Positions 28,052-48,483 of a stretch of 48,483 nucleotides of DNA are shown piece after piece. Every line of letters starts with the position of its first letter. Position 1 is the stretch's first letter. A program made the translations under genes and the position numbers. Source of the stretch: an uncultured Verrucomicrobiales bacterium (GTDB lineage: Bacteria; Pseudomonadota; Alphaproteobacteria; Paracaedibacterales; CAITNM01); the NCBI GenBank assembly GCA_964351815.1, contig CAYGPH010000001.1, forward strand, positions 30,460-78,942, read 5' to 3'. The notes beneath the pieces are model-generated. The model ran no database searches. It saw only the letters and a program-made list of their open reading frames with translations, and had not been told where the DNA came from.

Positions 28052-28086
28052 AATGATACGACAAAAAAAACGTGAGAAAACCCTAA

Positions 28087-29452: not shown

Positions 29453-29462
29453 TTTATTGTGA

Positions 29463-31262
29463 TTATAGGGTTATAAGTGTTCCGGGTTTGAAGGCAAAAG
29501 TATACTTAAGGTCAGGACTGTCTGGATCTTCAACTGTTAGTTCAATGAACCGTTGCCAATCGACCAATTGACTAAAGTAATGTTGTAATATGCTTGCAAA
29601 AATAGTGTTTGAACCGCCGTTAGTTGAATGCAAATCTATTTGTAATTCAACATTAAACCCTTCAACATAACCTTTCCAGGCAATTTCTCCGAACCTTCGT
29701 GTTTGTGGGGAAATATTTAAGTTATGTAAATCACGCGTAAGTTGATGGCTTTTGCCAGGGTAACGATTAAGAAAAATCTCTGCTAGGGCTTTGATATGTT
29801 TTAAACCATCACTGCCATTAACGGTGCCTATATAATTGTTTGCTAGCTGGCTTATGGTTAACCAAAGGGTGTCTCCATCTTCAGGGCTATAGGCTTGTGG
29901 CACAGGTTTTTTGATAAGTTTAAAACGGTGGGCTGCAATTTTTTCTTCAGGCTCAAAAACTGTGTTTTCCGTTAGTTCATTGGCTAAATAGCGATTTGTG
30001 CAGGTAATTTCTGCAACGGCCACAACATCCTTATTTCGGGCAGGATGAAACGCATGGTCTATAAAGGAAACAAACATATCTGTTCCAGGGCTTCCCCTTA
30101 ATAAAGCTGGGCGCCTTTTAGCGTACCAAAAACAGTTTTTTTCTTGATCAAAATCTAAGCGACTGTAAAAAGGTAAATAGTTTACTGTTTTTTGTGTTGC
30201 GTCTTCTAACCCAGAAATTGAGTTAATAGCGTATATTTCCGTTGTGCGTTCCCGCCTGGTGTCAGGAATTAAGCGATAATGCACCTGCTGATGGTCGATA
30301 CGTAAAGGATCGGATGGTTTGTTAAACAAATTAATAATTGGTGTGCAAAAAAGTTGTAATTGATCAATTCCTGCGCCAGCATTTTGCCACAAATTTGTAT
30401 CCTTAAGGGAAATAATTAAACGCAAGGTTTTTTTGTTGTTTGCAGACGCAATAGCTTCATGAAGGCCAGTGAAGCGAAGGAAGAAAAACTTTTCTGGACA
30501 ATGGAAATATTCTTGTAATAGGGCAAAGCTATGGTGATTTTGGGGTTCAAGGGGTAAACCTACTTCCTCACGGCTTAATCCAACCTGTTCTATCTGACCA
30601 GCCGGAAAAATATTATTATGCTCATCAGCAACATAAACGCCCGTATTTAAACACAACAGGGTCTGTAGGGCCGCATTCGCTTTTACCCAATCGTTGCCCA
30701 TAAAAAAAACAAGGTTTGTTAGGTTTAATTTTTGTAAATCTTCCTGGCAGCTTAGGGTGATTTCAAGTACTGCTTGATCAGAAAAATTATTATTTTTTGC
30801 CGTATAATTTTCATGGATAATGGCATTTTCTACTTGAATTGGCCAAACCATTACATCGTAAACTGTGCGAAAACGGCATTGTAATTGTTCTTGGCTTCTT
30901 GCCAATAGTTTTGTGCCCTTGGGTACCAATACGCCTTTACCCTTAGCAAATTGAACTGATTTCTTATCAATTTGGCTAATCGCCATTGATGGTGTTGGTC
31001 GTACTAAGTGGGGGTATAAAACATTTAATAAGGCCTGGGCTGTTTCCGGGTGGTGATCATCAAGGGTTTTGGATAACCTGGCGGTTAAATAAGCAAAAGA
31101 TTCCAATAAACGTTCAACGTGTGGGTCCGAAGATTCTGTTTCACTGTAATCTAGCCGGTGAGCAATTTTAGGATGTTGTTTAGCAAAGTCACGGCCTGCA
31201 TTGCGCAAGTATGCCATTTCTTCTTGATAATAAGCAACTAAACTGCCATCAACCTTGGCCAT
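29463..31262 (-). CDS. tssF: Type VI secretion system baseplate subunit TssF (ImpG/VasA family)
   Basis: LVAYYQEEMAYLRNAGRDFAKQHPKIAHRLDYSETESSDPHVERLLESFAYLTARLSKTLDDHHPETAQALLNVLYPHLVRPTPSM is a near-textbook TssF N-terminus. At 599 aa it is full length. Confidence 0.9.
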   Translation of the reverse strand: MAKVDGSLVAYYQEEMAYLRNAGRDFAKQHPKIAHRLDYSETESSDPHVERLLESFAYLTARLSKTLDDHHPETAQALLNVLYPHLVRPTPSMAISQIDKKSVQFAKGKGVLVPKGTKLLARSQEQLQCRFRTVYDVMVWPIQVENAIIHENYTAKNNNFSDQAVLEITLSCQEDLQKLNLTNLVFFMGNDWVKANAALQTLLCLNTGVYVADEHNNIFPAGQIEQVGLSREEVGLPLEPQNHHSFALLQEYFHCPEKFFFLRFTGLHEAIASANNKKTLRLIISLKDTNLWQNAGAGIDQLQLFCTPIINLFNKPSDPLRIDHQQVHYRLIPDTRRERTTEIYAINSISGLEDATQKTVNYLPFYSRLDFDQEKNCFWYAKRRPALLRGSPGTDMFVSFIDHAFHPARNKDVVAVAEITCTNRYLANELTENTVFEPEEKIAAHRFKLIKKPVPQAYSPEDGDTLWLTISQLANNYIGTVNGSDGLKHIKALAEIFLNRYPGKSHQLTRDLHNLNISPQTRRFGEIAWKGYVEGFNVELQIDLHSTNGGSNTIFASILQHYFSQLVDWQRFIELTVEDPDSPDLKYTFAFKPGTLITL

Positions 31263-31306
31263 GGGATATTTTTTTTAAACTTTAACAAAAATTTTAGCAG
31301 TTATTC

Positions 31307-31348
31307 TCTCCAAGACTCAAGTAAGATAATCCACTTGGTTCTTGGAGA
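31307..31348 (-). promoter_or_regulatory. Imperfect long hairpin in the tssF upstream/leader region
   Basis: tctccaaga (31307-31315) pairs with tcttggaga (31340-31348), and the inner pair is caagt (31318-31322) with acttg (31333-31337). It lies 45-86 nt upstream of the tssF ATG. Confidence 0.3.
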
Positions 31349-31557
31349 AACTAATTAGCATGTTAGGCTAGCATGTATTTTAATGCATATTGTTTCTAAT
31401 AACACATTTCAAGGGGACTGCAGTGGCTAAAACCAAAGTCATCTTTCACGTTGTCGCCAAAATATTCTGGATCTTCAGGTTTTTCATGGTCACTGGGTTG
31501 ATAATTTTCGTTTATGGACCCTTTGCAAGTGCTTGTTGGGCTATTTTGATTCTTTTG

Positions 31558-31851
31558 TCAAAAAATGGATATGCGTTTTGTTGTAGAATTAAAATCTGAT
31601 AAACTCGGGTAACGTTGAATTTTTAACTTATTATTCCTCTCAGTTAAAAGCCCGGTATTCCTTTTTTCTTCTTCAAGAAAAGAAGAACACGTTCCAATTG
31701 AACCATCTTTTACCACCGGACAATGCATGGAAATTGCTTGGGTATTTTGCAGTTGTAAGGGTTTATCCAAACTTCCGGGGATTTCTTTTCCGGTAATCAC
31801 GCTTAGCAAACTGGTAACAAAAAGAAACATGAAATACTTTGAAAACTGCAT
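31558..31851 (-). CDS. Small hypothetical secreted protein (97 aa from MQFSKYF)
   Basis: Signal peptide MQFSKYFMFLFVTSLLSVITG and two Cys. It is co-oriented with and upstream of tssF but shows no resemblance to TssE/gp25. Confidence 0.45.
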   Translation of the reverse strand: MQFSKYFMFLFVTSLLSVITGKEIPGSLDKPLQLQNTQAISMHCPVVKDGSIGTCSSFLEEEKRNTGLLTERNNKLKIQRYPSLSDFNSTTKRISIF

Positions 31852-32016
31852 TTTTTTTATTTCCACTATTAATACCTTAATGTTTGACTCTTCTAACAAT
31901 TAACTAAAGTTTCTTTCTTAATAATGGGTTAATTGTAAATGATTTGTTCCAATACCTCGCCTTTTATTTTTAGCTTAGCTAATATGGGCCAAAATTAAGA
32001 AACTTATTTTTCCTTT

Positions 32017-34722
32017 ATGACCCTGCATCTTGTTGATGGTTCTGGCTACATCTTTCGTGCTTACTATGCACTGCCACCTTTATCTACTCCAGAGGGTGTT
32101 CCAGCTGGTGCCGTTTACGGATTTACGAACATGCTACTGCGGCTTATGGAATCCGTTAAAGATGATCGACTGCTTGTCGTTTTTGATGCTGGACGACAAA
32201 ACTTTCGGCATAATTTATATCCTGACTATAAAGCAAATCGCGCTAGTCCCCCCGAAGATTTGATTCCACAGTTTTCACTTATTCGTGAAGCCTGTAATGC
32301 ATTAGGTGTCCCATGCCTCGAAATTCCTGGTTTTGAAGCTGATGATATTATCGCAACAATGTCTGTTAGGGCCAGTGCCGAAAATCAAAAAACACGAATT
32401 ATTTCAGGCGATAAAGACCTCATGCAATTGCTTAATCAGCAGGTGGAAATGTTTGATCCTGTCAAAAATAAACCTGTGGATGCGGAAGTTATTTTTAATA
32501 AGTTTGGTGTTACAGCCGATAAGGTAATAGAAGTTCAAGCCTTATGTGGTGATAGTTCAGATAACATTCCGGGTGTTCCTGGAATTGGTCCTAAAACAGC
32601 TGCAGAGCTTATTCATACCTTTGGTGATGTTGAAACCCTTTTAGCAAAAGCTGCCACAGAGATTAAGCAACCTAAACGACGCCAAAGTTTGATTGATAAC
32701 CGTGAACTTGCCCTAATTTCCAAACAATTAGTGACCTTAAAAACTGATGTGCCTTTGCCATATGGTATAAGCAGCATACCTGATGTAAAAACAGATTTCA
32801 CACAATTGCATAGTTTTTTAGACCGCATGGGGTTTAAAAGTTTAAGCAAGCGTTTGCAGCAAAAAGGCATGGGTGGGCATGAACCATTATTAAGTGCTAC
32901 TCAACAAGTTGTAAAGCAACAAATTGAATCCATTTGTATTACCGATGAAGCGACTTTAAAAAAGTGGTTGTTAGATGTTGAAAAAACCGGACTATTGGTT
33001 ATAGATGTGGAAACGACCGGCCTAAACACGCGTACTGCTGATTTGGTTGGAATTAGCCTTGGTGTTAAGCTAAATACCCTATGGCAAGGTGCCTATATTC
33101 CCGTTGGGCATAAAACAGAAAGCCAACAATTACCCCTTGCTTTGGTCAAAACCCATTTAAAAAAATTACTTTTAAACCACCAGATTACCAAAATTGGTCA
33201 TAACCTTAAATTCGATATGGCTATCCTTGAACGCTATGGCTTACCGATTAAAAGCTTACAAGATACCATGTTACTATCCTATTGTTTGTATGCAGGATTG
33301 CACGGTCATAGCATGGATGAATTATCTGAACGTTACTTAAATTATAAGCCGATTGGATTTAAGGAGGTTGCCGGTATTGGAAAAAAACAAGTGACATTTG
33401 ATGAGGTTGATTTGGAAAAAGCAACCCAGTATGCGGGTGAAGATGCTGTTATTACAGGAAAATTATATGATTTTCTGCAGCCTCAACTAGTCGAAAAACA
33501 AGTGAATCAAATATATTACACCGTAGAACGCCCTTTAATTCCTGTAATACAATCTATGGAAAAGATTGGTGTAAAAGTTGATCGTGAAAGTTTAGAAAAT
33601 ATCGGTAAAAGTTTTCTAGCCCAAATTACAGATCTTGAAAATGAAATTATTGGCTTAGCGGGAGAGGAATTTAACGTGGCATCACCGAAGCAGTTAGGTG
33701 AAATTCTATTTGATAAGCTTGGTCTTCCTAAGCCAAAAAAAACAAAAACTGGCACCTATGCAACCGATACCAAGGTGTTGGAAGATCTGGCAAATCAGGG
33801 TTACGCCATTGCTGATAAACTTATTGCATGGCGGGGGTTAAGCAAACTTTATTCGACCTATGTAGAGGGTTTACTAGAAGCCCAAGATTCCATTACCCAA
33901 AGGGTTCATACTTGCTATTCAATGGTTGGCGCTGCAACGGGTCGTTTATCATCATCTGACCCGAACTTGCAAAATATTCCTGTTCGAACGAATGATGGCC
34001 AAAAAATTCGTAAAGCTTTTATAGCAGATCAGGGTTATACGCTTTATAGCCTAGACTATTCACAAATTGAATTACGCCTTTTGGCTCACTTTGCAGATGT
34101 TCCAACACTGCAACAAGCTTTTGTTGATGGTCAAGATATTCATAAGATTACTGCTATGGAAGTGTTCCATAAAACTGAAAGGGAAATGACACAAGAATTG
34201 CGCCGGCAAGCCAAGGCGATCAACTTTGGTATCATCTACGGCATCAGTAATTTTGGTCTTGCCAAACAATTGCAATGCAGCAATGGCGAAGCTCAAGATA
34301 TTATTCGTCATTACTTTGAAAAATACCCAGGTATTCAAGCCTATATGGAAGCCTATAAGGAATATGCATCCCACCATGGTTATGTGAAAACCCTGTTTAA
34401 TCGACGTGTACATTTACCCTTCATTAAGGATCGTAATTATAATTTACGCAACTTTGCTGAACGCCAAGCCATTAATGCACCTTTACAGGGCAGCAACGCA
34501 GATATTATTAAAGTTGCTATGGCAAAAGTATTTGATTTTTTAAAAGACAAAAAAACCCGCATGCTGTTACAAGTGCACGATGAATTAATTTTTGAAGTGC
34601 CAGAAGAGGAAATAACTACAGTGCCACAACAACTGCAAACAATTATGCAGGGAATTACCCAACTTAAAGTACCGTTAAAGGTTGATATAGGTTGTGGCCC
34701 CAATTGGCATGCAGCCCATTAA
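32017..34722 (+). CDS. polA: DNA polymerase I
   Basis: 5'-nuclease N-terminus (LHLVDGSGYIFRAYYA), 3'-5' exo block (VIDVETTGL), and Pol motifs DYSQIELRLLAH and LLQVHDELIFEV. Confidence 0.97.
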   Translation: MTLHLVDGSGYIFRAYYALPPLSTPEGVPAGAVYGFTNMLLRLMESVKDDRLLVVFDAGRQNFRHNLYPDYKANRASPPEDLIPQFSLIREACNALGVPCLEIPGFEADDIIATMSVRASAENQKTRIISGDKDLMQLLNQQVEMFDPVKNKPVDAEVIFNKFGVTADKVIEVQALCGDSSDNIPGVPGIGPKTAAELIHTFGDVETLLAKAATEIKQPKRRQSLIDNRELALISKQLVTLKTDVPLPYGISSIPDVKTDFTQLHSFLDRMGFKSLSKRLQQKGMGGHEPLLSATQQVVKQQIESICITDEATLKKWLLDVEKTGLLVIDVETTGLNTRTADLVGISLGVKLNTLWQGAYIPVGHKTESQQLPLALVKTHLKKLLLNHQITKIGHNLKFDMAILERYGLPIKSLQDTMLLSYCLYAGLHGHSMDELSERYLNYKPIGFKEVAGIGKKQVTFDEVDLEKATQYAGEDAVITGKLYDFLQPQLVEKQVNQIYYTVERPLIPVIQSMEKIGVKVDRESLENIGKSFLAQITDLENEIIGLAGEEFNVASPKQLGEILFDKLGLPKPKKTKTGTYATDTKVLEDLANQGYAIADKLIAWRGLSKLYSTYVEGLLEAQDSITQRVHTCYSMVGAATGRLSSSDPNLQNIPVRTNDGQKIRKAFIADQGYTLYSLDYSQIELRLLAHFADVPTLQQAFVDGQDIHKITAMEVFHKTEREMTQELRRQAKAINFGIIYGISNFGLAKQLQCSNGEAQDIIRHYFEKYPGIQAYMEAYKEYASHHGYVKTLFNRRVHLPFIKDRNYNLRNFAERQAINAPLQGSNADIIKVAMAKVFDFLKDKKTRMLLQVHDELIFEVPEEEITTVPQQLQTIMQGITQLKVPLKVDIGCGPNWHAAH

Positions 34723-34725
34723 ACA

Positions 34726-35880
34726 ATGCCAGAATCATTCCTACCATCAGTTGCGCCAACCCAAGCCTATGCATTATATATTCATTGGCCCTTTTGTGCT
34801 TCAAAATGTCCATATTGCGATTTTAATAGCCATGTACGTAAATCATACGATGAAAAAGCCTGGACAGATGCCATTATTGCAGAAATTAATCAGGCTTTTA
34901 TAACATTTTCTCCAAAGGAAATTAGTAGCATTTTTTTTGGTGGCGGAACACCATCGTTAATGGCGGTAGAATCGGTGGAAGCTATTTTGCTTGCCATTGA
35001 CCGCGCTTATCCCTTAAGTACTATTCCAGAAATTACCTTAGAAGCTAATCCAGGTTCCGTAGAAAATGCAAAATTAAAGGGTTTTCGTAAGGCAGGGGTG
35101 AATCGGTTATCCATAGGTGTGCAAAGTTTTGATCAAAAGCGGCTTGCATTTCTTGGCCGTAAGCACAGTGTAATAGAAGCCAGGCAAGCCCTTGAACTTG
35201 CATATAAAACCTTTGGTCGTGTCAGCTTTGATTTAATCTATGCAACCCCTCAGCAAGATTTAAAAGCTTGGGAAGCAGAATTAACCAGTGCTTTAAGCAT
35301 TTATGATCCTGATCACCTTTCTCTTTATCAACTAACGATAGAACCAAATACGGTTTTTCAAGAACGGGTTGCCCGGGGGGATTTTATGGTACCTAACGAC
35401 GATTTAGCAGCAAGATTTTATCAATTAACGGCTGATATAGTTGCTGATAAAGGCCTTAAGGCTTACGAGGTTTCTAACTACGCAAGGCTAGGGCAAGAAT
35501 GTTTGCATAATTTAAGTTATTGGTGTTATCAGCCCTATATTGGTATAGGGCCAGGGGCCCATGGTAGACCAGGTATTGATGGGCAAACTTTTGCCACGAC
35601 CCAAACAAAAGTTCCAGAAAAATGGTTAAAGGCTGAACAGGGTAAGCGTTATTTAGAATATCATGCCCTAACCCATGAACAACAGCAGCGAGAATCACTT
35701 ATTATGGGTTTGCGTAGCACAAGGGGTGTGGTTTGGCCCTATACTGAGATGAATCGCGTTCACCAGCTTGTAAATCATAAATTACTAATGTTAGATAATC
35801 AAAACCAGAAAATTCTGCTTAAGCCCACTGACAAAGGCTTGCTAATGGTAGAGGGAATGCTGAATTACCTTCTAAATTAG
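34726..35880 (+). CDS. hemW: Radical SAM heme chaperone HemW (HemN-like, oxygen-independent coproporphyrinogen oxidase family)
   Basis: Contains YIHWPFCASKCPYCDFNS (CxxxCxxC) and IFFGGGTPSL. At 384 aa, the length fits HemW/YggW rather than HemN. Confidence 0.85.
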   Translation: MPESFLPSVAPTQAYALYIHWPFCASKCPYCDFNSHVRKSYDEKAWTDAIIAEINQAFITFSPKEISSIFFGGGTPSLMAVESVEAILLAIDRAYPLSTIPEITLEANPGSVENAKLKGFRKAGVNRLSIGVQSFDQKRLAFLGRKHSVIEARQALELAYKTFGRVSFDLIYATPQQDLKAWEAELTSALSIYDPDHLSLYQLTIEPNTVFQERVARGDFMVPNDDLAARFYQLTADIVADKGLKAYEVSNYARLGQECLHNLSYWCYQPYIGIGPGAHGRPGIDGQTFATTQTKVPEKWLKAEQGKRYLEYHALTHEQQQRESLIMGLRSTRGVVWPYTEMNRVHQLVNHKLLMLDNQNQKILLKPTDKGLLMVEGMLNYLLN

Positions 35881-35910
35881 GTCAATAAAAACATATTCGA
35901 ATTTCGCAAA

Positions 35911-35965
35911 CTTAATCTTCAACCCCTTTGCATAAAAAAATTGCTTTAGGAGGTTAAAGATTAAG
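35911..35965. terminator. Long-stem hairpin between convergent hemW and the 36004-37089 gene
   Basis: cttaatcttcaacc (35911-35924) pairs with ggttaaagattaag (35952-35965): 14 bp with 1 mismatch and a loop of about 27 nt. Confidence 0.35.
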
Positions 35966-36003
35966 AATTGAAATGTTTACCTAGGGCTAGGTTAATTAAT
36001 AGC

Positions 36004-37089
36004 TTAAAAATTAAAAAAGCTCGGAAATTTAGGCATTGGTCTCATTTTAGGCATTGGTCTCATTTCACGCACAGGTCTCATTTCACGCCTAGGCAAAGCT
36101 GCTCCATTAAGAAAAAATCCTGAAGATTGTCTGCTTGATAAGAATTGCTGATGTGAAGCAACACCATTTATTGTTCTTGTGGTGCTACTGTTGTATGATT
36201 CGGAATGAGTCCATGCCATTATGATGGGTAAATTGTCTTGTAACGTTGCATCTGCTTGTAACGCTGGTGCTGCTACTTGTAAAGTTTGAGCTACCTGTAA
36301 CGTTGGAGCTGCTTGTAACGCTGGTGCTACTTGCGCAGGAGCTGCTTGTAACGTCGGAGTTAGTTGTATGGATGTGCGCATATAACTTAAAATACTATTT
36401 ATTTCTCCCTTATTTTTTTCCTTAGAATCTTGTTTTAAACATTCCCATTTAAAACCTTTAAGCGGGCTATTTTTACTTGCAAAACACTCAAGGGGTCTCT
36501 GGTTAAAGCTTTTGACAGAAAGTAAAATTAAATGAAAGACAAAATCATCAACGTTTTCGTATGTGCTATCTAAAAGTTGCATAGAAAAGTCACCATCCGA
36601 ATTTCTTGCACTATTGCTTTTTTTCACAAAGCTGCACATTTCATTTTCTATTTCTTGCAATGTCATTTTTGAGGATGAGATCGACATAGAGTCATCTGAA
36701 CTAAATTTGCTATCTATAGTTGATAAAATTATCGCTGCAAACACCTTTTTTTTAAGTTTTTTATTTTCAATAGAAGAAAACAGTCTGATTGACATATTTT
36801 GATTAATATACTCTGGCAAAGAAACAAGTTGCAAAATTTCATTTTCTACCTGGTAACTTTTAAAAAATTCTGCAGGTGTTTTTTCATTGTCGTTTTTATC
36901 ATCATGCGGGATGCACGTGTTAATTTTTAACGCATAATCTTGAAGAGCTTGATCATTTTGAAATATTGGTGCAAATTTTGTGAATTCACTTTCCTGTCTA
37001 TATTCGTTTTTTTGAATGCCTGCTGCATTAAGGGCGCATAAGCACATAACAAGAAGGGTCAAATATTTTTTTGGATCTTTATAAAACAT
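36004..37089 (-). CDS. Hypothetical secreted protein, paralog A (repeat-rich C-terminus)
   Basis: Signal peptide present. The central region is collinear with paralog B (KTPAEFFKSYQVENEILQLVSLPEY, KKLKKK, MTLQEIENEMC, CFASKNSPLKGFKWECLK). The C-terminus is made of A/P/LQ repeats and MRP repeats. Confidence 0.7.
   Translation of the reverse strand: MFYKDPKKYLTLLVMCLCALNAAGIQKNEYRQESEFTKFAPIFQNDQALQDYALKINTCIPHDDKNDNEKTPAEFFKSYQVENEILQLVSLPEYINQNMSIRLFSSIENKKLKKKVFAAIILSTIDSKFSSDDSMSISSSKMTLQEIENEMCSFVKKSNSARNSDGDFSMQLLDSTYENVDDFVFHLILLSVKSFNQRPLECFASKNSPLKGFKWECLKQDSKEKNKGEINSILSYMRTSIQLTPTLQAAPAQVAPALQAAPTLQVAQTLQVAAPALQADATLQDNLPIIMAWTHSESYNSSTTRTINGVASHQQFLSSRQSSGFFLNGAALPRREMRPVREMRPMPKMRPMPKFPSFFNF
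36031..36093 (-). repeat. 18-bp in-frame tandem repeat, about 3.5 units
   Basis: Units are aggcattggtctcatttt (36031-36048), aggcattggtctcatttc (36049-36066), acgcacaggtctcatttc (36067-36084) and a partial unit. They encode REMRPV-REMRPM-PKMRPM-PKF. Confidence 0.9.
36237..36365 (-). repeat. Degenerate in-frame repeats containing cttgtaacg (LQ codons)
   Basis: The motif (c)ttgtaa(c/a)g recurs at about 36237, 36255, 36275, 36294, 36311 and 36344. It encodes PTLQAAPAQVAPALQAAPTLQVAQTLQVAAPALQADATLQ. Confidence 0.8.
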
Positions 37090-37171
37090 AATTAAACTTT
37101 GATTGATTAACTATCACCTATATAAGTATTAGAAAAATGATTGTCAACGTTTAAGCAATATAAATTATGAA

Positions 37172-37529
37172 CTATTTTTTTTGTTCATACTTTTTATTCT
37201 TAAGAATAGGCGCTATAGCCAATAGGCAAAGACCATATAAAAGTATTAAGCATCCGAACCAAAAGAAAACAATCAGTGGCTTGTATAAAAATTCTGCACA
37301 CCAATGGCCATCATGGTTTGTGTAAATCACGGCATGGATTTGGTGAAAGCCAAAAGTGCGCCAATCTCCTTGGTGTTTAACGATGTTATTAACATTAAAA
37401 AATTGACGATTTGGACTTAGCAAACGTTTAAAATCATCGAGCTGAAAATGTATCATTTCTCCGTCAAAACCAGGCCCTTTAACGCTTTTGTGATCTCTTA
37501 TAACAATCGAATGGTTTGCAAAGGTTATT
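37172..37529 (-). pseudogene. Duplicated fragment of the ccmF 3' end (last ~115 codons) with a different C-terminal tail
   Basis: The 94-aa ORF MIHFQLDDFKRLLSPNRQFF...LLAIA is identical to the end of the 38706-40385 protein. Homology continues upstream (FANHSIVIRDHKSVKGPGFDGE vs FANHLITIKDHKSVKGPGFDGE) without a start codon. Confidence 0.85.
37212..37496. repeat. 285-bp direct repeat, copy 2 (identical to 38728-39012)
   Basis: Base-by-base comparison by hand found no mismatch over 285 bp. The next ~33 bp (37497-37529 vs 39013-39045) show about 8 mismatches, after which similarity is lost. Confidence 0.9.
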
Positions 37530-37658
37530 AAATTTTATAATTTTAATCTTCAATACCTTTTCAGAAATAATTACGTAAGGTATGGAATACTTTTAAGCTA
37601 TTTAATAAAAATCTTCAGCCTTAGCTTTTTTTTTGGATAGTTTTTTTTAAAAAAAAAA

Positions 37659-38621
37659 TTAAGACGCAGCTTCCCTATAGGTGATAACGAAAGTTAGTCC
37701 CCTAAATTTTGTTTTGTATTTTTCTGAGAGCTTTCCATTTACTGGAAAATGTGGATTAGTCTTTCCATTTTCAAAAAATTCTTTTACGTCGAAGTCGTAA
37801 CTTCGTCCTGAAATTACTGTTTCTCCGCTATTAGTTTTTTCTACACAATGTGCTGTTCCGACAAGATTAGCTTCACGGCATTTATGTTTAAGCATTAAAC
37901 ATAAAATATTAGTTTTTATACCTTCAGGATTTGCTTTTAAGTCTTTCCATTTAAAATCTTTCAGCAAGCTTGTTTCACTTGCAAAAGATTGAATAGGGTT
38001 ATTATTAATCTTTGTAGGAGAAATATAAATTAAATGTAACACGAGATCATGAATACTATCGTAGGTCCTGCTAATCAATGGTTCTGCAGTCGTATTTTCA
38101 TGGTTACTAGCATGTATGCACTTTGGATCTCCAAAAATGCATATTGCATTCTCTATTTCTTGTAATGTTAATTGTGATGAAAGAATTTTTATTGCATCTT
38201 CGTTGCTGAAAACTGAACTAATGCTTGATAGAATAAATGCTGCTAGCGCTTTCTTTTTTAGATTTTTATTTTGAATTATGTCAAAAAGTCTATATAAAAT
38301 TTCTGGTTTTCTATATTCAGGTAAAGTTACAAGTTGCAAAATTTCTTTTTCTGCCTTGTAACTTTTAAAAAATTCTGTAGGGGTTTTTTGTTCGCTAGTT
38401 TTGTCGTGAAGAGGAATACAATCGTTAATTTCCGATAAATAATTTACTAAACTTAAACCATTTTTAAATACTTCCTTATCACCATGGAATTCTGGGTAAT
38501 TATCTGTTAAGGCCATCATACCAGAATTTTTGTCTACCAGCTCTTCAGCAGCCTTAAGGTAAAAAAAACTAAAGCATAAAAACAGCAAACTTAAATGCTT
38601 TTTCTTGCAGATACATATCAT
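37659..38621 (-). CDS. Hypothetical secreted protein, paralog B (unique C-terminal module)
   Basis: Signal peptide present. The central region is collinear with paralog A (KTPTEFFKSYKAEKEILQLVTLPEY, KNLKKK, LTLQEIENAIC, SFASETSLLKDFKWKDLK). The C-terminal ~90 aa are unrelated to paralog A. Confidence 0.7.
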   Translation of the reverse strand: MICICKKKHLSLLFLCFSFFYLKAAEELVDKNSGMMALTDNYPEFHGDKEVFKNGLSLVNYLSEINDCIPLHDKTSEQKTPTEFFKSYKAEKEILQLVTLPEYRKPEILYRLFDIIQNKNLKKKALAAFILSSISSVFSNEDAIKILSSQLTLQEIENAICIFGDPKCIHASNHENTTAEPLISRTYDSIHDLVLHLIYISPTKINNNPIQSFASETSLLKDFKWKDLKANPEGIKTNILCLMLKHKCREANLVGTAHCVEKTNSGETVISGRSYDFDVKEFFENGKTNPHFPVNGKLSEKYKTKFRGLTFVITYREAAS

Positions 38622-38705
38622 TTTATTTTTTTAAGTAAGTTAAAGTTACAATAAAGTCTACTGTATACATCTAAAAAATATTTACAATGTTTTTTGTATT
38701 ATTTC

Positions 38706-40385
38706 TTATTTAATTTTAAACCTATCGGCTATAGCCAATAGGCAAAGACCATATAAAAGTATTAAGCATCCGAACCAAAAGAAAACAATCAGTGGCTTGT
38801 ATAAAAATTCTGCACACCAATGGCCATCATGGTTTGTGTAAATCACGGCATGGATTTGGTGAAAGCCAAAAGTGCGCCAATCTCCTTGGTGTTTAACGAT
38901 GTTATTAACATTAAAAAATTGACGATTTGGACTTAGCAAACGTTTAAAATCATCGAGCTGAAAATGTATCATTTCTCCGTCAAAACCAGGCCCTTTAACG
39001 CTTTTGTGATCTTTTATAGTAATCAAATGATTCGCAAATGCTATTGTTTCATTTGGGTGCAAGGGAAAATTTTCGGTTTCACTATATTTTTGTGTGTAGG
39101 TTCCAAAAATAAGCATTATTCCAACCCCCATGTGGGCTATGGCAAAGGGTTTTTTATAAAAATAACTTACTTTGACAGTGCTTATAATTAACCACAAACC
39201 AATAATTACGGCTAAGTTTAAACGTATACCAAAATATTTTTGCAGCATAAGTTGCCATAAAAGGGTTAAAGTAACAGCTAAAATAAAATCAAAAACTTTT
39301 CGCCTATTTATTTTTAAAACTGGTGCAAGACTTGCAAACCCAAGCCCCAATGCAATAAGTGGCATCAGGTTTTGGTTATAAAAATTTTCCGTAATGTGAA
39401 TATTTATGTTAAAAATCATCACCATTAGGCTTGTGAATAATATAATTAAAAGTGCAAGAAAGCCTAAGCTTGCATAACTTCTTCCCTTCACCTGAAGTTT
39501 TTTTTTGAAATTTAGCCAGATAGCTAAAGTTAACAATAAAATAATAAATCCATAGGCCATAAGCCAAATCATATGATTATTATCATTGGCAAAACTATGA
39601 ACGGAGGTTAATAAGTTTGAACGTGCTAAAATCATGGATAGAACTACCATGGGGTAGCTTAGCAACGAATAAAATTGCATAAGGGAATAATTATCTTTTG
39701 CATGGATTGCGGCTGCAACCATAAGCCAGGGTAGTAACGCCAGTATTTCAACAGGATCCCAGAACCAGTAGCCGCCCCAGCCAAGTTCTCCGTAAGCCCA
39801 AAAAGCCCCTAATATAATTCCTAAGGTTAGGAAAAAAAAACTGAATTGTAATATTTTTCTTAAAACCCCATAAGGAAAATAAAAACTACCTGCCCAAGCA
39901 AGGCTACATAAAATTTGCCCAAGATATAAAATAGGGGGGTGAATTGCTAACAAATTATGCTGTAAAGCAGGGTTAAAAGCGTGGTCTTTTAACACGCTAG
40001 ATGTAGAAATTACGAATGGGTTAGCCATGAAAAACGTGTAGCTATACAAAGCGATGATATTAAAAGCTAATATGGATTTCACAGTAATATTCTTCACAGA
40101 ATATGCAGCTACAGCAAGCATAGTAAGAAACAAGAAAAGCGACCCACTATGATCGGACCATATGCTGCCTATGCGGTAAATCATTGGTGTTCCAATGGTA
40201 AGGTGATCATGAACATGGGAAAGGGAAGTTAATAAGAAAATATGGCTGTAGGCAAAATATCCAAAAAGCAAAAAAATAATGATCAAGCCAATGTTGATAA
40301 ACTTTTTCTTCCAAAGTATTCCCAATCCAAGGCAAAAAATTGCGCCAAATTGTATACTATCAAGCAAAATGCCAAGCAAAGTCAT
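38706..40385 (-). CDS. ccmF: Cytochrome c-type biogenesis heme lyase subunit CcmF
   Basis: WWD motif WAYGELGWGGYWFWDPVE. Also YRIGSIWSDHSGSLFLF (cf. WG.HEGS.LLW). Multi-pass membrane protein of 559 aa. Confidence 0.88.
   Translation of the reverse strand: MTLLGILLDSIQFGAIFCLGLGILWKKKFINIGLIIIFLLFGYFAYSHIFLLTSLSHVHDHLTIGTPMIYRIGSIWSDHSGSLFLFLTMLAVAAYSVKNITVKSILAFNIIALYSYTFFMANPFVISTSSVLKDHAFNPALQHNLLAIHPPILYLGQILCSLAWAGSFYFPYGVLRKILQFSFFFLTLGIILGAFWAYGELGWGGYWFWDPVEILALLPWLMVAAAIHAKDNYSLMQFYSLLSYPMVVLSMILARSNLLTSVHSFANDNNHMIWLMAYGFIILLLTLAIWLNFKKKLQVKGRSYASLGFLALLIILFTSLMVMIFNINIHITENFYNQNLMPLIALGLGFASLAPVLKINRRKVFDFILAVTLTLLWQLMLQKYFGIRLNLAVIIGLWLIISTVKVSYFYKKPFAIAHMGVGIMLIFGTYTQKYSETENFPLHPNETIAFANHLITIKDHKSVKGPGFDGEMIHFQLDDFKRLLSPNRQFFNVNNIVKHQGDWRTFGFHQIHAVIYTNHDGHWCAEFLYKPLIVFFWFGCLILLYGLCLLAIADRFKIK
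38728..39012. repeat. 285-bp direct repeat, copy 1 (inside the ccmF 3' end)
   Basis: Identical to 37212-37496. The offset is 1516 bp. Confidence 0.9.
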
Positions 40386-40399
40386 TATTTTTTGTTAGT

Positions 40400-41536
40400 T
40401 TATAAAGCCAATTGTGGCATTTGGGCTAGCAGGTGGCTATAAATTTTTGTAAGTTTTTCCAAATCTTTGAGGGTTACATATTCATCAACCTTATGGGCCA
40501 TGGAATTACAAAGGCCAAGCTCAATAACAGGGCACAGCTTTTGAATAAACCGAGCATCGGATGTGCCACCCTCAGTGTTAATAATTGTTTTTTTACCAGT
40601 TACATTTTCAACACTTCTTTGAACAAATGAACTCCAGGTGTTGCCTCCCTTACTTAAAAATGGATGCGCACTGTGTTCAAAGGTGAATTCAAAAATGATA
40701 CCCGTATGCTGAATTTCCACCTTCTGACCTGCGGTTAAAAATAGCATTTCTAGGCTGCTTGCGGTGTGTTCCGTATTATAGCGAACATTAACCCTTGCGT
40801 TGGCTAAACCAGGGATTACATTATTGACGCTATTGGGAATATCCACTTGAATGATTTCAAGGTTACTGGGGTCAAAAAATTGATTTCCATTATCCAAGGG
40901 GGCTGCTCTTAAAGATTGAAGCAATTCAATCATAGCTGTTGCAGCACTTGAAGCTAAGTCAGGGTAAGCCACGTGACCTTGAACACCTTTTGCGGAAATA
41001 TAGGCAGTCATACTGCCACGTCTGCCATTTTTTATAACATCACCAACATTTTTCCGTGCTGTGGGTTCACCAACAAGGGCAAAATCTGGTGTAATATTAT
41101 TTTGCATTAACCATGGGATCATTGCTTTTACCCCATTTTTGGCCGATCCTTCTTCATCTGTTGTAAGCAAAACACTTACGGTAAAGGCGGGTTTAGTTTG
41201 CTCTAAAGCTTCAAGAAAACAGGCTATTGCCCCTTTCATATCAACGGCGCCACGACCGTAAATTCTGCCACTTTTTTCCATTGCCACAAAAGGGTTACTT
41301 TGCCAGCCTTCTCCGGGTGGTACAACATCTACATGGCCAACAAAACAAATATGTGGCGCTTCCCCATGCTTAATAGCAAACAGATTATGCGTATCATTAA
41401 TCGTAATTATTTCTGTTGAAAAGTTTAATGCTGTTAACATTTCTGCTATGTACTGCAGGCAATCTAAACCTTTAGGTGTAACACTATCATATGAAATCAG
41501 TTGTTTTAAAATTTCTCGAGCGCTATAGATATACAT
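40400..41536 (-). CDS. dapE: Succinyl-diaminopimelate desuccinylase (M20 peptidase)
   Basis: Contains LISYDSVTP, FVGHVDVVPPG, GRGAVDMKG and LLTTDEEG, and is adjacent to dapD. Confidence 0.9.
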   Translation of the reverse strand: MYIYSAREILKQLISYDSVTPKGLDCLQYIAEMLTALNFSTEIITINDTHNLFAIKHGEAPHICFVGHVDVVPPGEGWQSNPFVAMEKSGRIYGRGAVDMKGAIACFLEALEQTKPAFTVSVLLTTDEEGSAKNGVKAMIPWLMQNNITPDFALVGEPTARKNVGDVIKNGRRGSMTAYISAKGVQGHVAYPDLASSAATAMIELLQSLRAAPLDNGNQFFDPSNLEIIQVDIPNSVNNVIPGLANARVNVRYNTEHTASSLEMLFLTAGQKVEIQHTGIIFEFTFEHSAHPFLSKGGNTWSSFVQRSVENVTGKKTIINTEGGTSDARFIQKLCPVIELGLCNSMAHKVDEYVTLKDLEKLTKIYSHLLAQMPQLAL

Positions 41537-41556
41537 AAAATTTGATGGGCCTTTGC

Positions 41557-42369
41557 CTAGGTTTCTTCGCGTAAAATATTATTAATAGATGTTTTGGATC
41601 TGGTTTTTTCATCGACTTGCTTTACGATAACCGCACAGCTTAAGTGTATACCATTTTTTGATGGAAGCGAACCTGGGACGACAACACTATAGGCTGGTAC
41701 TTTGCCATAGAGAATTTCACCGGTTTCCCGGTTATAAATTTTTGTCGATGCGCCTAAAAATACGCCCATACTAATAACGGATCCTTCTTCTACAATAACA
41801 CCTTCAGCTATTTCTGAACGGGCACCAATAAAGCAATTATCTTCAATAATCACGGGGTTGGCTTGCAAGGGTTCCAAGACACCACCAATTCCAGCACCAC
41901 CAGATATATGACAATTCTTTCCGATTTGCGCACAGGCACCAACCGTTGCCCAAGTATCTATCATTGTGCCACTATCCACATAAGCACCGATATTTATAAA
42001 GCTTGGCATTAACACGGTATTTGGGGCGATAAAAGATCCATGGCGTACAATTGCCCCTGGTACCATTCGTACTTTAATTTTTTCAAAATCATTCTGTGTC
42101 CAGTTAGCTGTTTTTAAAGGCACCTTATCAAAAAAAGGTGAGGGTGTTGCAGGAATTAATGCGTTTTTTTGCGTGCGAAAGGAAAGCAAAATTGCTTTTT
42201 TATAAATTTCGTTAACATGCCAGTTTTTATTTATTTTTTCTGCAACGCGAATAACCCCACTATCTAAATCTTGCAGAATTTTTTCTATAAGTTTTTCACA
42301 TTCGTTGCTAAGTTGATTTTGGCTTGCAAAAGCATCTTCAATAATTTGCTGTTCGTTTATAGATAACAT
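41557..42369 (-). CDS. dapD: 2,3,4,5-tetrahydropyridine-2,6-dicarboxylate N-succinyltransferase
   Basis: Start set at [14 protein letters not shown] (ATG at 42369). Contains [20 protein letters not shown] and hexapeptide repeats. The 20-aa extension in the ORF track has no support. Confidence 0.9.
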
Positions 42370-42479
42370 TATAGTATTTTTTGATTTGAATCTAAATCTT
42401 ATTGAATAAGTAAACGTGGTTAGGGTCAAGTTTTAATTGGTTTTATGCGATATTATTTAAGTAATTGCCTTTTTACGAA

Positions 42480-42956
42480 TTAGGCAATAGCCTTATGATG
42501 TTCATAAAGATGTGTGGGTTTTTGCCATGTGGGCCAGCCATCATGCAGATCATTCAGGTATACTTCTATCTTACTAACTTGCACAAGCATTTGTTTGTCG
42601 TGGGAAAAAATAAGCTTTAGTTCGTAACCTTTTTTTGCCTTTGAAACATCTATGTGTAAAAGGTTTAACATATTATCCCTTGGTTTTGAATCCTTAGGAA
42701 ACTGATGAAACCCACGGTTCATTACGTGTGTGACATGGCAAAACAAAAGACCCATATTAGCCCGGCAGTATAACGGTGTTCCCATATGTGAACTTTGATG
42801 ATTCCAGCAAAATCGGTTCACCAGTAAAGAAAAAGTATTTTTTTCATATACCATGGCTGATATGGGGCAAATACCTTCTTTCAACTGCAGGCTAATGTGG
42901 TAGAGATCTTCTTCCGACTTAGCTAATACTTTTATTTTTTTATGATTGGGTAACAT
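42480..42956 (-). CDS. Conserved alphaproteobacterial protein, DUF2948-like
   Basis: [45 protein letters not shown] resembles the DUF2948 N-terminal pattern (L.L.A.D.eDL.v.Sa..QDAv....dm.y.......f.l..NRF.WE). Called from memory of the family. Confidence 0.5.
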
Positions 42957-43026
42957 TTTTGAATCTGTGCATCAGCGTTTGAACATGCTAGATTTAATTA
43001 TTGGACAACAAAAATATAAAGGCAAC

Positions 43027-43950
43027 ATGCTTGTGAAAAAAAATATCATTGATCAGGAAAATCAAGAGTTTGAAAGCTTCTCTACAAAGCGAGCTACGGT
43101 TTTTGAACTTGAAGAAATTCTTTATGAGCCCATAAAGGTTCTTGATCATGGTTTCATTCGTGTTGTCGATTATATGGGGAACGATAATGCTATCGTGCAA
43201 TCTGCCAGAGTTTCGTACGGTAAGGGTACAAAAAAGCTTAGCCAGGATCAGGGTTTAATTAATTATTTAATGCGCCATTGGCATACAACACCCTTTGAAA
43301 TGTGTGAATTAAAACTGCATGTAAAGCTGCCTATGTTTGTTGCTAGACAATGGATTCGCCATCGTACAGCAAATGTGAATGAATATTCTGCGCGGTATTC
43401 TATTTTGGATAAGGAATTTTATATTCCCAAACATCAGCAGTTAGCTGCGCAGTCTACTGAGAATAAACAGGGTAGGGGGCAGCTAATAGAAGGTGCTGAA
43501 GCAGAAAATGTTTTGGAACTTCTAAAACGCGATGCTGCGCAAGCCTATGACACTTATGAATACTTACTTAATGAAGGAGACAACCGCGACGAATCGCGTT
43601 CCAGTTTATCGCGGGAACTTGCAAGAATGAATCTTCCCGTTAATTATTATACCCAGTGGTATTGGAAAATTGATTTGCATAACCTTATGCATTTTGTGCG
43701 CTTGCGTGCAGACCACCATGCGCAATACGAAATTCAGGCCTATGCTAAAATTTTACAGGATATCATGCAACGATGGGTCCCCATGGCCTATGCTGCTTTT
43801 TTAGATTATCGACAAAATTCTGCTCAGCTTTCCGGTAAAATGGTAACTGTTTTAAAACGTATGCTAAAGGGAGAGCAAGTGTCTCAGGCAGATAGTGATT
43901 TAACAACCAGGGAATGGCAAGAAATGCAGGGTATAATTCATGACAGTTAG
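43027..43950 (+). CDS. thyX: FAD-dependent thymidylate synthase ThyX
   Basis: ThyX motif [14 protein letters not shown] (RHR-X7-S), plus [19 protein letters not shown] and [24 protein letters not shown]. The start is uncertain: the ORF opens at 42946, and ATG 43027 gives a conventional N-terminus. Confidence 0.88.
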
Positions 43951-45664
43951 TAATACACTTATCAACATTTTTTCCATAGCAATAGCATTGTGCACCGTTG
44001 CCTGTGAAAAAAAAGAAAGTAAATCACAACAGCATACTTCTGAAAACCTTTTAGAAGAACCTACGAAAAGCCAAAATACCCAAATCGAAACGGCGAATGA
44101 AAATCTGTTTCAGCAAGAAAATTCCCATGAAGTTACCTTTAAAAAAACAACGGATACTCTAAATTTACCCACACCACAACAAGTTGAAACCCTAAAACTT
44201 TTGTTACAAAGTACCGATCTTGATGTTAATAGTAATACGGTGAAACAGGCCCTTGAAGAATCAAGCTTAGCCTCCCTGTTTGTTTATCAATTCTATAAGG
44301 AATTTATTTTGTATTTACAAAATCCTGAGAAAGGCGAACAGCGGGCGCAAACTTACTTAAACTTTTTATCTAAAGCTGTGCTTGATAAGGGACTAGGTAT
44401 GATGGACCTTGATCAATCACCAGATGCAGAAAAACCGCTAAATCTTTTCTTGCAATACATAGGACATATTTCTTTTTACATTATTGCAAATAACAAACAA
44501 CTTTTTCCCTATACCATTCCACCTTGGGTTGTAAAAATGTATCCCAAGGTTACTGCTCATCGCCTCGGACGCAATCATGCAGAGTTATCATACACAGGGT
44601 TCGTAAAAAGCCCTTCCTTTCAAATTTTAAATACCTTTTTAAATGAAGCTATTCAACCCGGTGAACTGCCAAGCTACGCTACAAATTTTTTTGGTACCCA
44701 TCAATTTGATCTTGATGCATCACGTGAAACAGCTAAGGGTATGTTAAATTTTTACCCCATGGGTTTGATAGATAAAGATGATCCCACAACAATTGTTTCA
44801 GAAACCAAAAAAAATATACTTATTTGGGCAAGTCTTGGGGTTTACAATGCCCAGCTTTACAACCAGTTTAATCTACATTTTCAGGGAATTCTAAAGGATT
44901 ACCAAAAACATACTTTGGAAATACATGGTGATTTGGATGAAAAAATTTTGAAAGCTGCTTTCTATAACTATATTGCTTATTATTTTATTACCCATGAACC
45001 CATAGCTAGTGTTTTCCTTTATAAGCAATCTGATTTTACAAAAGCGAACATTGAAAAAGCCCTCCATTTACAGCAAAAAGCCCTTGGAGAAGTGCATTCA
45101 GATTCAAAAACATTTTATAATGAAATACTATGCCGTGCTATAACCCTTGGTGTAGATTTGGAAATTATTGAATGGCTTATAGATACAAAAAAGGCAGATA
45201 TAAATTATGCTTTCTTTGATGAAACACCCCTAATGCGGGCTTGCGACAAACCTAATATTTTGAAGTTTCTTTTGCAAAAAAAAACCAAGGTAGACCAAAC
45301 AAACACCTTCGGTAAAACGGCCTTATTTTATGCTATTCAATATGGAAATTTGGATACGGTAAAATTAATTGTAGAAGCAGGTGCAAATGTAAATGCCAAA
45401 ATTTATTCCCTCGATAAATTAAAAAAACTTGCCTTCGACTTTAGTTCAAAAAAACCAGGGCCGATTGTTTTGCTTGAACAGGTGGCAGACTTTACGCCAT
45501 CCATTTATGCAAAACGTTATGCCACCATTGATGTGCAAAATTATTTGCAGAAAAAAAATGCAAACGATGGTAAAATTGATGCAGAACGTGTGAAAAAATG
45601 GCTGAGTTTTAAGGATGGGCATACGATTCATAATGCTCCTGCTGAGCCTGGTACTACACCTTAG
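43940..45664 (+). CDS. Ankyrin-repeat protein with N-terminal signal/possible lipoprotein sequence
   Basis: N-terminus [21 protein letters not shown] repeats near the C-terminus: [60 protein letters not shown]. The ATG overlaps the thyX stop by 11 nt. Confidence 0.8.
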
Positions 45665-46313
45665 TTTATTTTATCCTCCGCCACTTTTTTCAATATCTGA
45701 AAAGCATAATATTTGGCGTTTTCGTGAAAAAATTGACCCTGCAGATATCCATACTGGCTTGCTGTATCGCCAACGGCTTTTAACTGCAGCGTTTGAACTT
45801 AACATGCCAATTAAATATGAAGGTCGCGAAACAAGCGCTTTACACCTAAAAAAAGATCATGATAAAAAAGTACAAAATTCTTACGAGACTTTTATTGCAT
45901 CGCGGGAAAAACTTGCCAAAGACTTACTTGGAAAAAAATACAAGGGAACAATCATTGATCAATGTATTGTGCGGCCATATGGTTTTTTTTGTATTTTGAC
46001 AGAGAAACTGGGCCAAGATTTAACAAAGAAGAGTATAAACATACATATTATTCCACCAAAGGGACATGATTTTGTGCCAGTTATTATTGAATGGGCAAAA
46101 CCAACATTATACCTAGGAGATTTGACCCTTTATACCAATCAAGAATACAAGGGTTATAATGAACAATATAAGATATTTTTTTCATGGTTTGAAAAGCTTG
46201 TCTACTTAAGAACCACTTTTAAATTCATTTTGGTTAATGTGTTACTTCAAGAAACCGACCTAGAAACAGAAATAGAAGAATCAGATGATGCAATTGATGA
46301 TTCTTTTGTCTAG
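45615..46313 (+). CDS. Hypothetical protein with hydrophobic N-terminus and acidic C-terminus, ORFan
   Basis: The ORF overlaps the ankyrin gene end. An alternative start lies at 45633 ([13 protein letters not shown]). No family recognised. Confidence 0.5.
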   Translation: MGIRFIMLLLSLVLHLSLFYPPPLFSISEKHNIWRFREKIDPADIHTGLLYRQRLLTAAFELNMPIKYEGRETSALHLKKDHDKKVQNSYETFIASREKLAKDLLGKKYKGTIIDQCIVRPYGFFCILTEKLGQDLTKKSINIHIIPPKGHDFVPVIIEWAKPTLYLGDLTLYTNQEYKGYNEQYKIFFSWFEKLVYLRTTFKFILVNVLLQETDLETEIEESDDAIDDSFV

Positions 46314-46386
46314 CTTTTCTTATGCAACCTATATCACCAATTATTTTTTCTCGCTATTATCTGTAATGGATTAGAAAAGAATTCCT

Positions 46387-47565: not shown

Positions 47566-48458
47566 TGATTCTTAGGTTAGCATTGTGTGCAAAAAATTAT
47601 CTTGGAAACAACAATTATGGTGCACTGCTTATTGTATTGGCAACGTTTACAGCTGCTACCACAAGCAGTTTGAACCATAGTATTCAAAATATACCAGCCA
47701 TGGAGATTTTGTTTTTCAAGTGCGCCATGGGTTTGGTTACCTTAAGTTTGTATTACTGTCGGCATTTTTTAAAGCTTTTTCACACGACCATTATTAAATA
47801 CCATGCTTTTAAGGGCCTGGTAGGTAGCCTAGGCAACTGGGCTTGGATTTTGTCCCTACAGTTTTTACCCCTTGCTGAAGCATCATCCCTTTCAACGACA
47901 AGCGCTTTCTTCACAAGCCTTATGGGTATAGTACTGTATAAGGAACCCTTTCATAGGAAAGCCTGGTTGGCCATTGCCATGGGTTTTTTGGGGGCAATTA
48001 TTATTTTGCATCCTTCCCAAGTAATATTTTCATGGTATATTATGCTGCCGTTATTTTCGGCGTTTTGTTTTTCCATATCATCGGTACTGGTTAAAAGTAT
48101 ACGTCCGTTCGATAGTGCCCAAACGACATTAATTTACCTATTAAGCTTTATGGCATTATTTTCTGTGTTAAGTACCCTTATAACCCCATGGGTTATGCCT
48201 AATAAAATTGAGCTTATCAAAATGTTGATAACCGGAATAAGCTATTTGCTTTCCCAAGTTTGCTTAATAGAGGCCTACACCTATGCCTTAACCAGCTTTA
48301 TAGCGCCCTTTAAGTTCGTGCGTTTTCCCCTAAGCATTTTAACTGGGGTATTATTTTTTACAGAAATCCCACCAATTTCAACCCTAGTTGGTGGCGGTAT
48401 TATTTTGTTAGGGTACCTATGGCTGCTAAGGGCAAAGAAAAAGACAAAACGTTCATAA
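47565..48458 (+). CDS. EamA/DMT-family transporter
   Basis: About 10 TM segments in a two-EamA-repeat architecture. The ATG overlaps the MFS stop (TAATG). Confidence 0.8.
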   Translation: MILRLALCAKNYLGNNNYGALLIVLATFTAATTSSLNHSIQNIPAMEILFFKCAMGLVTLSLYYCRHFLKLFHTTIIKYHAFKGLVGSLGNWAWILSLQFLPLAEASSLSTTSAFFTSLMGIVLYKEPFHRKAWLAIAMGFLGAIIILHPSQVIFSWYIMLPLFSAFCFSISSVLVKSIRPFDSAQTTLIYLLSFMALFSVLSTLITPWVMPNKIELIKMLITGISYLLSQVCLIEAYTYALTSFIAPFKFVRFPLSILTGVLFFTEIPPISTLVGGGIILLGYLWLLRAKKKTKRS

Positions 48459-48483
48459 TAAAAAACCCTCCCGGTATAAGGGG

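Follow-up and report, generated by a model that had tools for sequence, protein, structure and literature searches.

How does a piece of a gene that appears to be dead stay identical, base for base or nearly so, to the living gene from which it was derived, when the rest of the DNA duplicated with it has diverged to saturation? This question is raised by the ccmF locus of a 48,483-bp stretch of DNA from an uncultured bacterium (contig CAYGPH010000001.1; the whole stretch is called the window below). ccmF encodes a haem lyase subunit, and on the minus strand it is followed, in order, by a gene for a predicted secreted protein (paralog B), a short element, a second copy of the 3' end of ccmF (the fragment), a diverged relative of the secreted-protein gene (paralog A), and a second copy of the element. 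A first-pass annotation, made by reading the letters alone, had proposed the gene layout, and gene calling bore it out. The answer that we consider probable is an old tandem duplication followed by at least one recent round of interlocus gene conversion between ccmF and the fragment.

A 285-bp repeat within a diverged tandem duplication

The features needed for the argument are given here in minus-strand order, with the convergent gene that bounds them.

38706-40385, minus strand: ccmF, encoding an intact but divergent haem lyase subunit of the CcmF/NrfE family (559 aa); the tail after the last transmembrane helix reads DRFKIK, then stop
39013-39046, minus strand: counterpart, in intact ccmF, of the eroded edge of the fragment (codons ~447 to 458), with the putative proximal breakpoint of the original duplication at ~39046
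38728-39012, minus strand: repeat copy in ccmF, from the third base of codon 458 to the second base of codon 553, covering the periplasmic C-terminal domain and the last transmembrane helix; exact match to 37212-37496
37659-38621, minus strand: paralog B, a 320-aa orphan with a signal-peptide-like N-terminus (MICICKKKHLSLLFLCFSFFYLKA/AEE)
37531-37581, minus strand: element of ~50 nt downstream of paralog B (repeat family D5), one end of which abuts the ccmF fragment
37172-37530, minus strand: ccmF-derived fragment, the tail of which reads PILKNKKYEQKK, then stop, where ccmF has DRFKIK
37497-37530, minus strand: eroded 5' edge of the fragment, which keeps the ccmF frame (ITFANHSIVIRDH in the fragment, IAFANHLITIKDH in ccmF) and matches 39013-39046 at 74%
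37212-37496, minus strand: repeat copy in the fragment, the tract that we take to be homogenised (exact match and permutation test)
36004-37089, minus strand: paralog A, a 361-aa orphan whose N-terminus resembles a signal peptide (MFYKDPKKYLTLLVMCLCALNA/AG) and whose repeat-rich C-terminus is unrelated to that of paralog B
35900-35951, minus strand: element of ~50 nt downstream of paralog A, ~20 nt from the hemW stop codon and forming the distal end of the duplicated unit
34726-35880, plus strand: hemW, convergent

Comparison of the window with itself at an offset of 1516 gave a single exact run of 285 bp (37212-37496 against 38728-39012, with 0 of 285 positions differing), and a repeat finder returned the same pair (family D1). 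A k-mer count placed the repeated 31-mers of the 48,483-bp window in these two stretches only. The zero-mismatch repeat described in the first-pass annotation thus holds base by base in the assembled sequence, coordinates included, as does its description of an edge with about 75 percent identity over some 33 bp: on the high-coordinate side, 37497-37530 and 39013-39046 agree at 25 of 34 positions (74%), beyond which similarity ends. This short flank is significant (Smith-Waterman score 18, against 7.8 +/- 1.3 for shuffled sequence; 0 of 2000 shuffles reached it). On the low-coordinate side, made up of the ccmF tail and intergenic DNA, identity falls immediately to alignment noise, and no significant similarity was found (196 of 2000 shuffles matched the score). 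The low-coordinate end of the tract lies in the Ala codon that closes the last membrane helix, 7 codons ahead of the ccmF stop codon, and it coincides with the point at which the alignment of the CcmF family loses conservation.

When the two units are aligned with each other (37531-39080 against 35880-37530, both on the minus strand), their parts fall in the same order and orientation, and identity between the units varies along them as follows.

ccmF codons ~447 to 458: 74%
285-bp tract: 100%
ccmF tail and intergenic DNA: 53%, not significant
conserved core of the paralogs: 64% at the nucleotide level
C-terminal parts of the paralogs: unrelated

The two paralogous proteins are 45% identical over their first ~225 residues and show no similarity thereafter. 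Over a 204-codon core, the Nei-Gojobori method gave 0.44 nonsynonymous substitutions per site (dN) and 1.35 synonymous substitutions per site (dS), with synonymous sites saturated; 8 of the 23 four-fold degenerate sites in identical codon families match, and nucleotide identity is 64%. A dN/dS ratio of ~0.33 indicates that both paralogs have been kept by purifying selection. Because dS is saturated and the DNA between the end of ccmF and the start of the paralog is no longer detectably similar, the duplication is ancient, as judged by these measures of sequence divergence. The two copies of the downstream element (37531-37581 and 35900-35951) are also related, aligning locally with a score of 21 against 9.9 +/- 1.6 for shuffled sequence (0 of 2000). 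The end of the first copy, 37531, directly adjoins the first ccmF-derived base, 37530, and since the element of paralog B here meets the start of the ccmF fragment, 37530/37531 can be read as the duplication junction. The duplicated unit would then have spanned from ~39046, inside ccmF, to ~35900, just before the end of hemW. An in-frame TAA (37535-37537) lies immediately upstream of the eroded edge of the fragment. Divergence of the paralogs, the paired downstream elements, and the junction together back the earlier proposal that the ccmF end and the gene downstream of it were duplicated in tandem long ago.

A GENECONV-style test, which the first-pass annotation had suggested, set the tract clearly apart from the rest of this duplication. 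When the columns of the unit-to-unit alignment were permuted, the longest identical run was at most 42 in 10,000 trials, against 285 in the real alignment (0 of 10,000), and the second-longest real run of identity between the two units is 20 bp. The probability of 285 straight matches is ~5e-38 at a background identity of 74%, and it is ~4e-7 even at 95%. Zero differences would likewise result if a fresh second duplication, or patch repair, had copied 285 bp of ccmF ahead of paralog A. However, such an event would leave unexplained the adjoining 34-bp edge, which is ccmF-derived, in frame, and 74% identical, as well as why the tract occupies precisely the place in which a ccmF fragment is expected from the old duplication, and we regard it as very unlikely.

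Direct repeats of the 3' end of a gene around inserted DNA are the classic footprint of an integrative element, raising the alternative that paralog B sits on a small mobile cassette that inserted at the 3' end of ccmF, with the repeats as attL and attR. However, no integrase or recombinase gene lies within or beside the repeats: paralog B, without a match in Pfam or NCBIfam, is the sole gene between them, and ccmF, paralog A, and hemW are the genes nearby. The supposed cargo is paralogous to the gene immediately beyond the repeats, the downstream element is duplicated too, and GC content is 0.31 inside against 0.31 to 0.35 in the adjacent kilobases. Moreover, a foreign ccmF end would be expected to diverge uniformly, rather than to match at 100% and then at 74%. 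Searches of protein libraries found the 1.2-kb unit neither at ccmF in unrelated genomes nor beside an integrase. Taken with the edge and the duplicated element, this makes insertion of a cassette extremely unlikely.

The fragment also contains an open reading frame (ORF), which bears on whether selection, rather than recombination, could have kept the tract.

37172-37456, minus strand: 94-aa ORF, starting at the equivalent of CcmF Met472 and ending in LLAIAPILKNKKYEQKK, then stop

The first-pass annotation had pointed to this ATG-to-stop ORF as a possible stand-alone membrane peptide. The ORF exists, and it is intact and in frame, with GGAG 2-3 nt upstream of the ATG; the Pfam profile CcmF_C matches the ORF of the fragment at profile positions 250-318 of 323. 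For production of a stand-alone peptide, in contrast, there was neither a supporting signal nor a database match. The ATG is an internal CcmF Met codon present equally in the intact gene, the GGAG is likewise internal CcmF sequence, and the 94-aa product has no match in the public protein collection. Promoter and terminator scans gave counts at chance level, with no minus-strand promoter-like site inside the tract, offering nothing to the related notion that the fragment serves as a regulatory or promoter block for paralog A. A protein or promoter under selection does not retain every synonymous site, and we find it barely credible that a membrane-anchored peptide or a regulatory function of the fragment has preserved the tract. 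The fragment appears instead to be a dead, non-functional 3' piece of ccmF.

Gene conversion as the probable source of the identity

Since selection on protein or promoter cannot fix every synonymous position, the tract must have been copied recently, and since the rest of the duplication has diverged to saturation, the 285 matches are not residual similarity. Unusually long identical runs are the GENECONV criterion for conversion, conversion tracts have mean lengths in the range of tens to hundreds of bp, and the rate of conversion drops steeply near ~80% identity (review PMC3924818). The permutation test, the contrast in age, and the eroded edge all support the first-pass suggestion of a sharply bounded tract made identical by conversion.

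The mechanism, direction, and recurrence of conversion that we infer would be as follows. An ancient duplication would have extended from ccmF codon ~447, through the orphan signal-peptide gene, to the element before the end of hemW. Homologous recombination between the direct copies, on one chromosome or on sister chromosomes, would then have repeatedly copied sequence from one to the other non-reciprocally. Conversions that carried mutations of the fragment into ccmF would be purged by purifying selection on ccmF, and conversions in the opposite direction would wipe out decay of the fragment. Because ccmF is under purifying selection, the fragment would track the live gene, making ccmF the effective donor. 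Loss of homology would confine the tract at both ends. The 34-bp edge is probably the remnant of an older, longer conversion, since its identity of 74% lies above the neutral expectation for the duplication, suggesting earlier conversions with variable end points. Conversion may be ongoing ("active," in the first-pass annotation), as far as a single genome can suggest.

The tract encodes conserved CcmF_C sequence, and ccmF itself has the hallmarks of its family. CcmF passes the Pfam cut-offs for PF01578 (Cytochrom_C_asm; 72.5 bits, cut-off 29.9) and PF16327 (CcmF_C; 62.3 bits, cut-off 28.7), and it falls short of that for NCBIfam TIGR00353 (164 bits, cut-off 569). The Trp-rich motif WGGYWFWDPVE (WGGxWFWDPVE) and residues H149, H228, H263, and H418 are invariant or nearly so in alignments. 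The best non-self homologue in a protein search is 37% identical, the nearest clade consists of proteins of 560-618 aa with 31-37% identity, and the nearest named relatives, at ~30% identity, come from Paracaedibacteraceae and metagenome-assembled genomes of Alphaproteobacteria. By sequence, CcmF of this organism is therefore a very divergent and short (559 aa) member of the family. The tail that follows the last membrane helix is unconserved across the family and basic in all homologues.

Interlocus conversion is a known phenomenon, and the locus offers an unusually clean new instance of it, with no new mechanism. Its value is that of a textbook-clean, delimited case, in which a fragment that is apparently dead is held identical to its live parent inside a duplication with saturated synonymous sites.

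The locus in an independent assembly

Independent contigs for the locus were recovered by exact-protein look-up from the Logan assembly of run ERR3534985. Three of them match the window with no mismatch.

38983-48483: contig L084, which stops 30 nt into the repeat at ccmF
37467-39012: contig L083, of 1546 bp, equal to the 1516-bp unit plus 30 (k-1), its first 30 nt being the same as its last 30 nt
26914-36281: contig L085

These ends fit a de Bruijn graph with k=31, because two different sequences enter the same repeat. L083 covers paralog B, its downstream element, the 34-bp diverged edge, and the repeat, and it includes the duplication junction. The reads therefore include the junction as well as both sequences that lead into the repeat from the left, and the tandem layout is not an invention of the assembler. 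The first-pass annotation had named an assembly artefact as what would undo the duplication; instead, the unique duplication junction is found in an independent assembly (L083 and L084), the coverage of which leaves out the junction between the repeat and the tail of the fragment.

Several points nevertheless weigh against recent conversion as the explanation, or against the precision with which it can be stated. L083 leads without interruption out of the repeat at its 3' end and into the tail that reads DRFKIK, the edge of the graph toward the second tail and paralog A being absent or pruned, and the junction 37211/37212 lies outside the Logan contigs. The zero-mismatch figure is partly a product of construction, and the copies could differ at a few sites. 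Only one genome bears on the case, with no relative closer than 37% CcmF identity for phylogenetic or population comparison. Finally, no recombination genes were seen within the window, outside of which none were looked for.

De Bruijn assemblers emit a collapsed repeat node twice and pop small bubbles. The repeat might thus be real but imperfect, with an identity of, for example, 97-99%, and have been collapsed to one consensus that was emitted twice, in which case conversion would be older or rarer than it seems. The Logan graph, with one repeat node and two left-hand contexts, agrees with this possibility, which we consider unlikely. It would alter the degree of the finding and not its kind, since even 98% identity over 285 bp far exceeds the 53-74% of the flanks.

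A more radical alternative concerns the arrangement. On the true chromosome, ccmF might be followed by the repeat and then by paralog A, the 1516-bp unit being a separate circular or amplified molecule, or part of a co-assembled strain, that was threaded in during assembly. L083 is indeed a closed k=31 cycle (1546 = 1516 + 30) with no branch toward paralog A, and in a de Bruijn graph a tandem unit looks the same as a chromosome accompanied by an excised circle. However, the 34-bp ccmF-derived edge of the unit is joined to the element of paralog B, a junction that only a duplication creates and that the reads contain. A circle of 1.5 kb lacking genes for replication or integration would not last at chromosomal coverage, and in the two-allele form of this alternative the DNA downstream of paralog B should join hemW and not the ccmF fragment. 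Moreover, the Logan assembly also breaks elsewhere: L085 ends at 36281, inside the second 18-nt array of paralog A, although no repeated 31-mer occurs there. Missing k-mers in this 31%-GC region (through low coverage, strain variation, or variation in repeat number) can thus plausibly account for the absent edge as well, and we think it improbable that the arrangement is an artefact. On the evidence given above, we set aside the integrative element, the two-allele mis-join, a second duplication of recent date, and preservation of the 94-aa ORF by selection.

The cycle contig can be read in one further way, in which recombination of the RecA type is at work on the real locus. A crossover between the repeats would reversibly delete or amplify the 1516-bp unit, and the 1546-bp contig would then stem from additional copies or from excised circles, and not from a gap in coverage. 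We consider such a switch quite unlikely. If it did operate, cells would differ in the presence of paralog B and in the orphan secreted protein encoded directly behind the dapD-dapE-ccmF transcription unit, the first two genes of which lie upstream of ccmF.

41557-42429, minus strand: dapD
40400-41536, minus strand: dapE

The logic of such an exchange, set out in the first-pass annotation, is correct at the level of sequence: with a crossover, 1516 bp would be lost, paralog B among them, and ccmF would then end in LLAIAPILKNKKYEQKK, then stop. The swap of tails would probably be neutral, because the tail of CcmF is unconserved in the family. As a direct repeat of 285 bp, the pair would be a hotspot for deletion or amplification of paralog B, and it is a site at which short-read assemblies of this organism will break or mis-join. 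As a separate observation, position 1 of L084 is the last base of the window, 48483, suggesting that the source contig ends at a break common to two assemblies.

The orphan paralogs, the wider window, and known systems

Read by eye, the N-termini of paralogs A and B look like Sec signal peptides, with a basic stretch, then a hydrophobic one, then an L-x-A/A site, so both are predicted secreted proteins: paralog B has KKKH, LSLLFLCFSFFYL, and LKA/A, paralog A has KDPKK, YLTLLVMCLCAL, and LNA/A, and no lipobox is present in either. Neither belongs to a Pfam or NCBIfam family. A sub-threshold match of the paralogs to Josephin (E 0.048) was dismissed, because the aligned catalytic position lacks a Cys. 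Searches with paralog B of 5.8e9 proteins, and of 1.84e9 representative proteins, returned paralog B itself as the sole match, and tblastn found no further member of the family in the window. Paralog A (361 aa) had no match in a collection of 15 billion proteins, either in exact look-ups with two start sites or with a hidden Markov model, although ccmF and paralog B, encoded on the same contig of 78,942 bp, are present there; the Logan copy of paralog A is cut by a contig end. An AlphaFold model of the paralog core is all-alpha, with moderate confidence (pLDDT 62.5, pTM 0.62), and found no fold match in the PDB (best E 2.1). Under purifying selection and with no homologue among 1.84 billion representative proteins, these orphan signal-peptide proteins may outrank the repeat in biological interest.

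The spacing of two hexamers suggests a candidate promoter for paralog A.

37119-37147, minus strand: candidate paralog A promoter, TTGACA, 17 nt, TATATA, located 30 nt upstream of the ATG

The consensus promoter scan demands T at position 6 of the -10 hexamer and hence misses this candidate. Paralog A also contains in-frame 18-nt tandem arrays at 36028-36083 and 36237-36368, encoding hexapeptides of the types (M/V)RP(M/V)(P/R)(K/E) and (A/T)(P/L)(A/T)LQ(A/V). Just downstream of the stop codon of paralog B, homopolymers T9, T8, and A10 (37620-37660) are potentially prone to slippage.

A second tandem pair of signal-peptide-like orphan genes lies elsewhere in the window on the minus strand (ORFs 12027-12611 and 12739-13281, within 11932-13312), again with no Pfam family. 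The two proteins are 54% identical, and nucleotide identity reaches 82% across 300 nt at the 5' ends and is 72-73% in the rest. Like the pair at the ccmF locus, it is the product of tandem duplication of a signal-peptide gene specific to the lineage, and identity is uneven from one part of the unit to another, but it has no perfect tract and has captured no piece of a housekeeping gene. prfB, encoding release factor 2 (22693-23791, plus strand), begins with an ORF of 23 codons that terminates with CTT TGA C (22759-22765), with the main ORF in the +1 frame, a split that corresponds to a classical programmed +1 frameshift site. The window also holds the baseplate genes tssG and tssF of a type VI secretion system (28475-31262, minus strand), a gene for an ankyrin-repeat protein (43940-45664, plus strand), and flagellar hook genes (FlgD and FlgE-like; 1278-3413, plus strand); no Rfam family or tRNA was found in it. 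The secretion, flagellar, and ankyrin-repeat genes, together with a GC content of 36.6% and many orphan genes, suggest that this poorly sampled proteobacterium is host-associated, probably with a protist.

Related strains were sought with CcmF by a scan of contigs, which found none, and a profile scan with CcmF brought up relatives at 24-30% identity only. In a relative (P0003), the ccmF locus (L001/L002) is not syntenic and has no homologue of the paralogs. In the literature, we found no paper on partial duplication of ccmF in bacteria.

Among known systems, the locus resembles the attL and attR sites of integrative elements in that identical direct repeats of a gene's 3' end stand on either side of an additional gene, and a circle would be released if they recombined. 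It differs from such sites in having no integrase, a native base composition, a cargo that is the paralog of its neighbour, and a diverged edge on the fragment. Interlocus gene conversion and concerted evolution are well known from bacterial duplicates such as tufA and tufB of Salmonella. As in conversion of that type, a long identical run lies amid diverged duplicates, and the tract, some hundreds of bp long, ends on each side where homology is lost. Unlike tufA and tufB, however, one partner here is not a second functional copy but what appears to be a non-functional 3' fragment of a housekeeping gene, and the contrast is extreme, with 100% identity inside the tract and saturation outside it. 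Silent partial copies act as donors in pilS/pilE of Neisseria, the msp2 pseudogenes of Anaplasma, and vls of Borrelia. In those systems, as we propose for ccmF, a truncated copy near a full-length gene exchanges sequence with it by conversion, and the recombination pathway would be the same. There, however, the copies are kept different in the service of surface-antigen variation, whereas here they are identical, no variation results, and the gene encodes a haem lyase.

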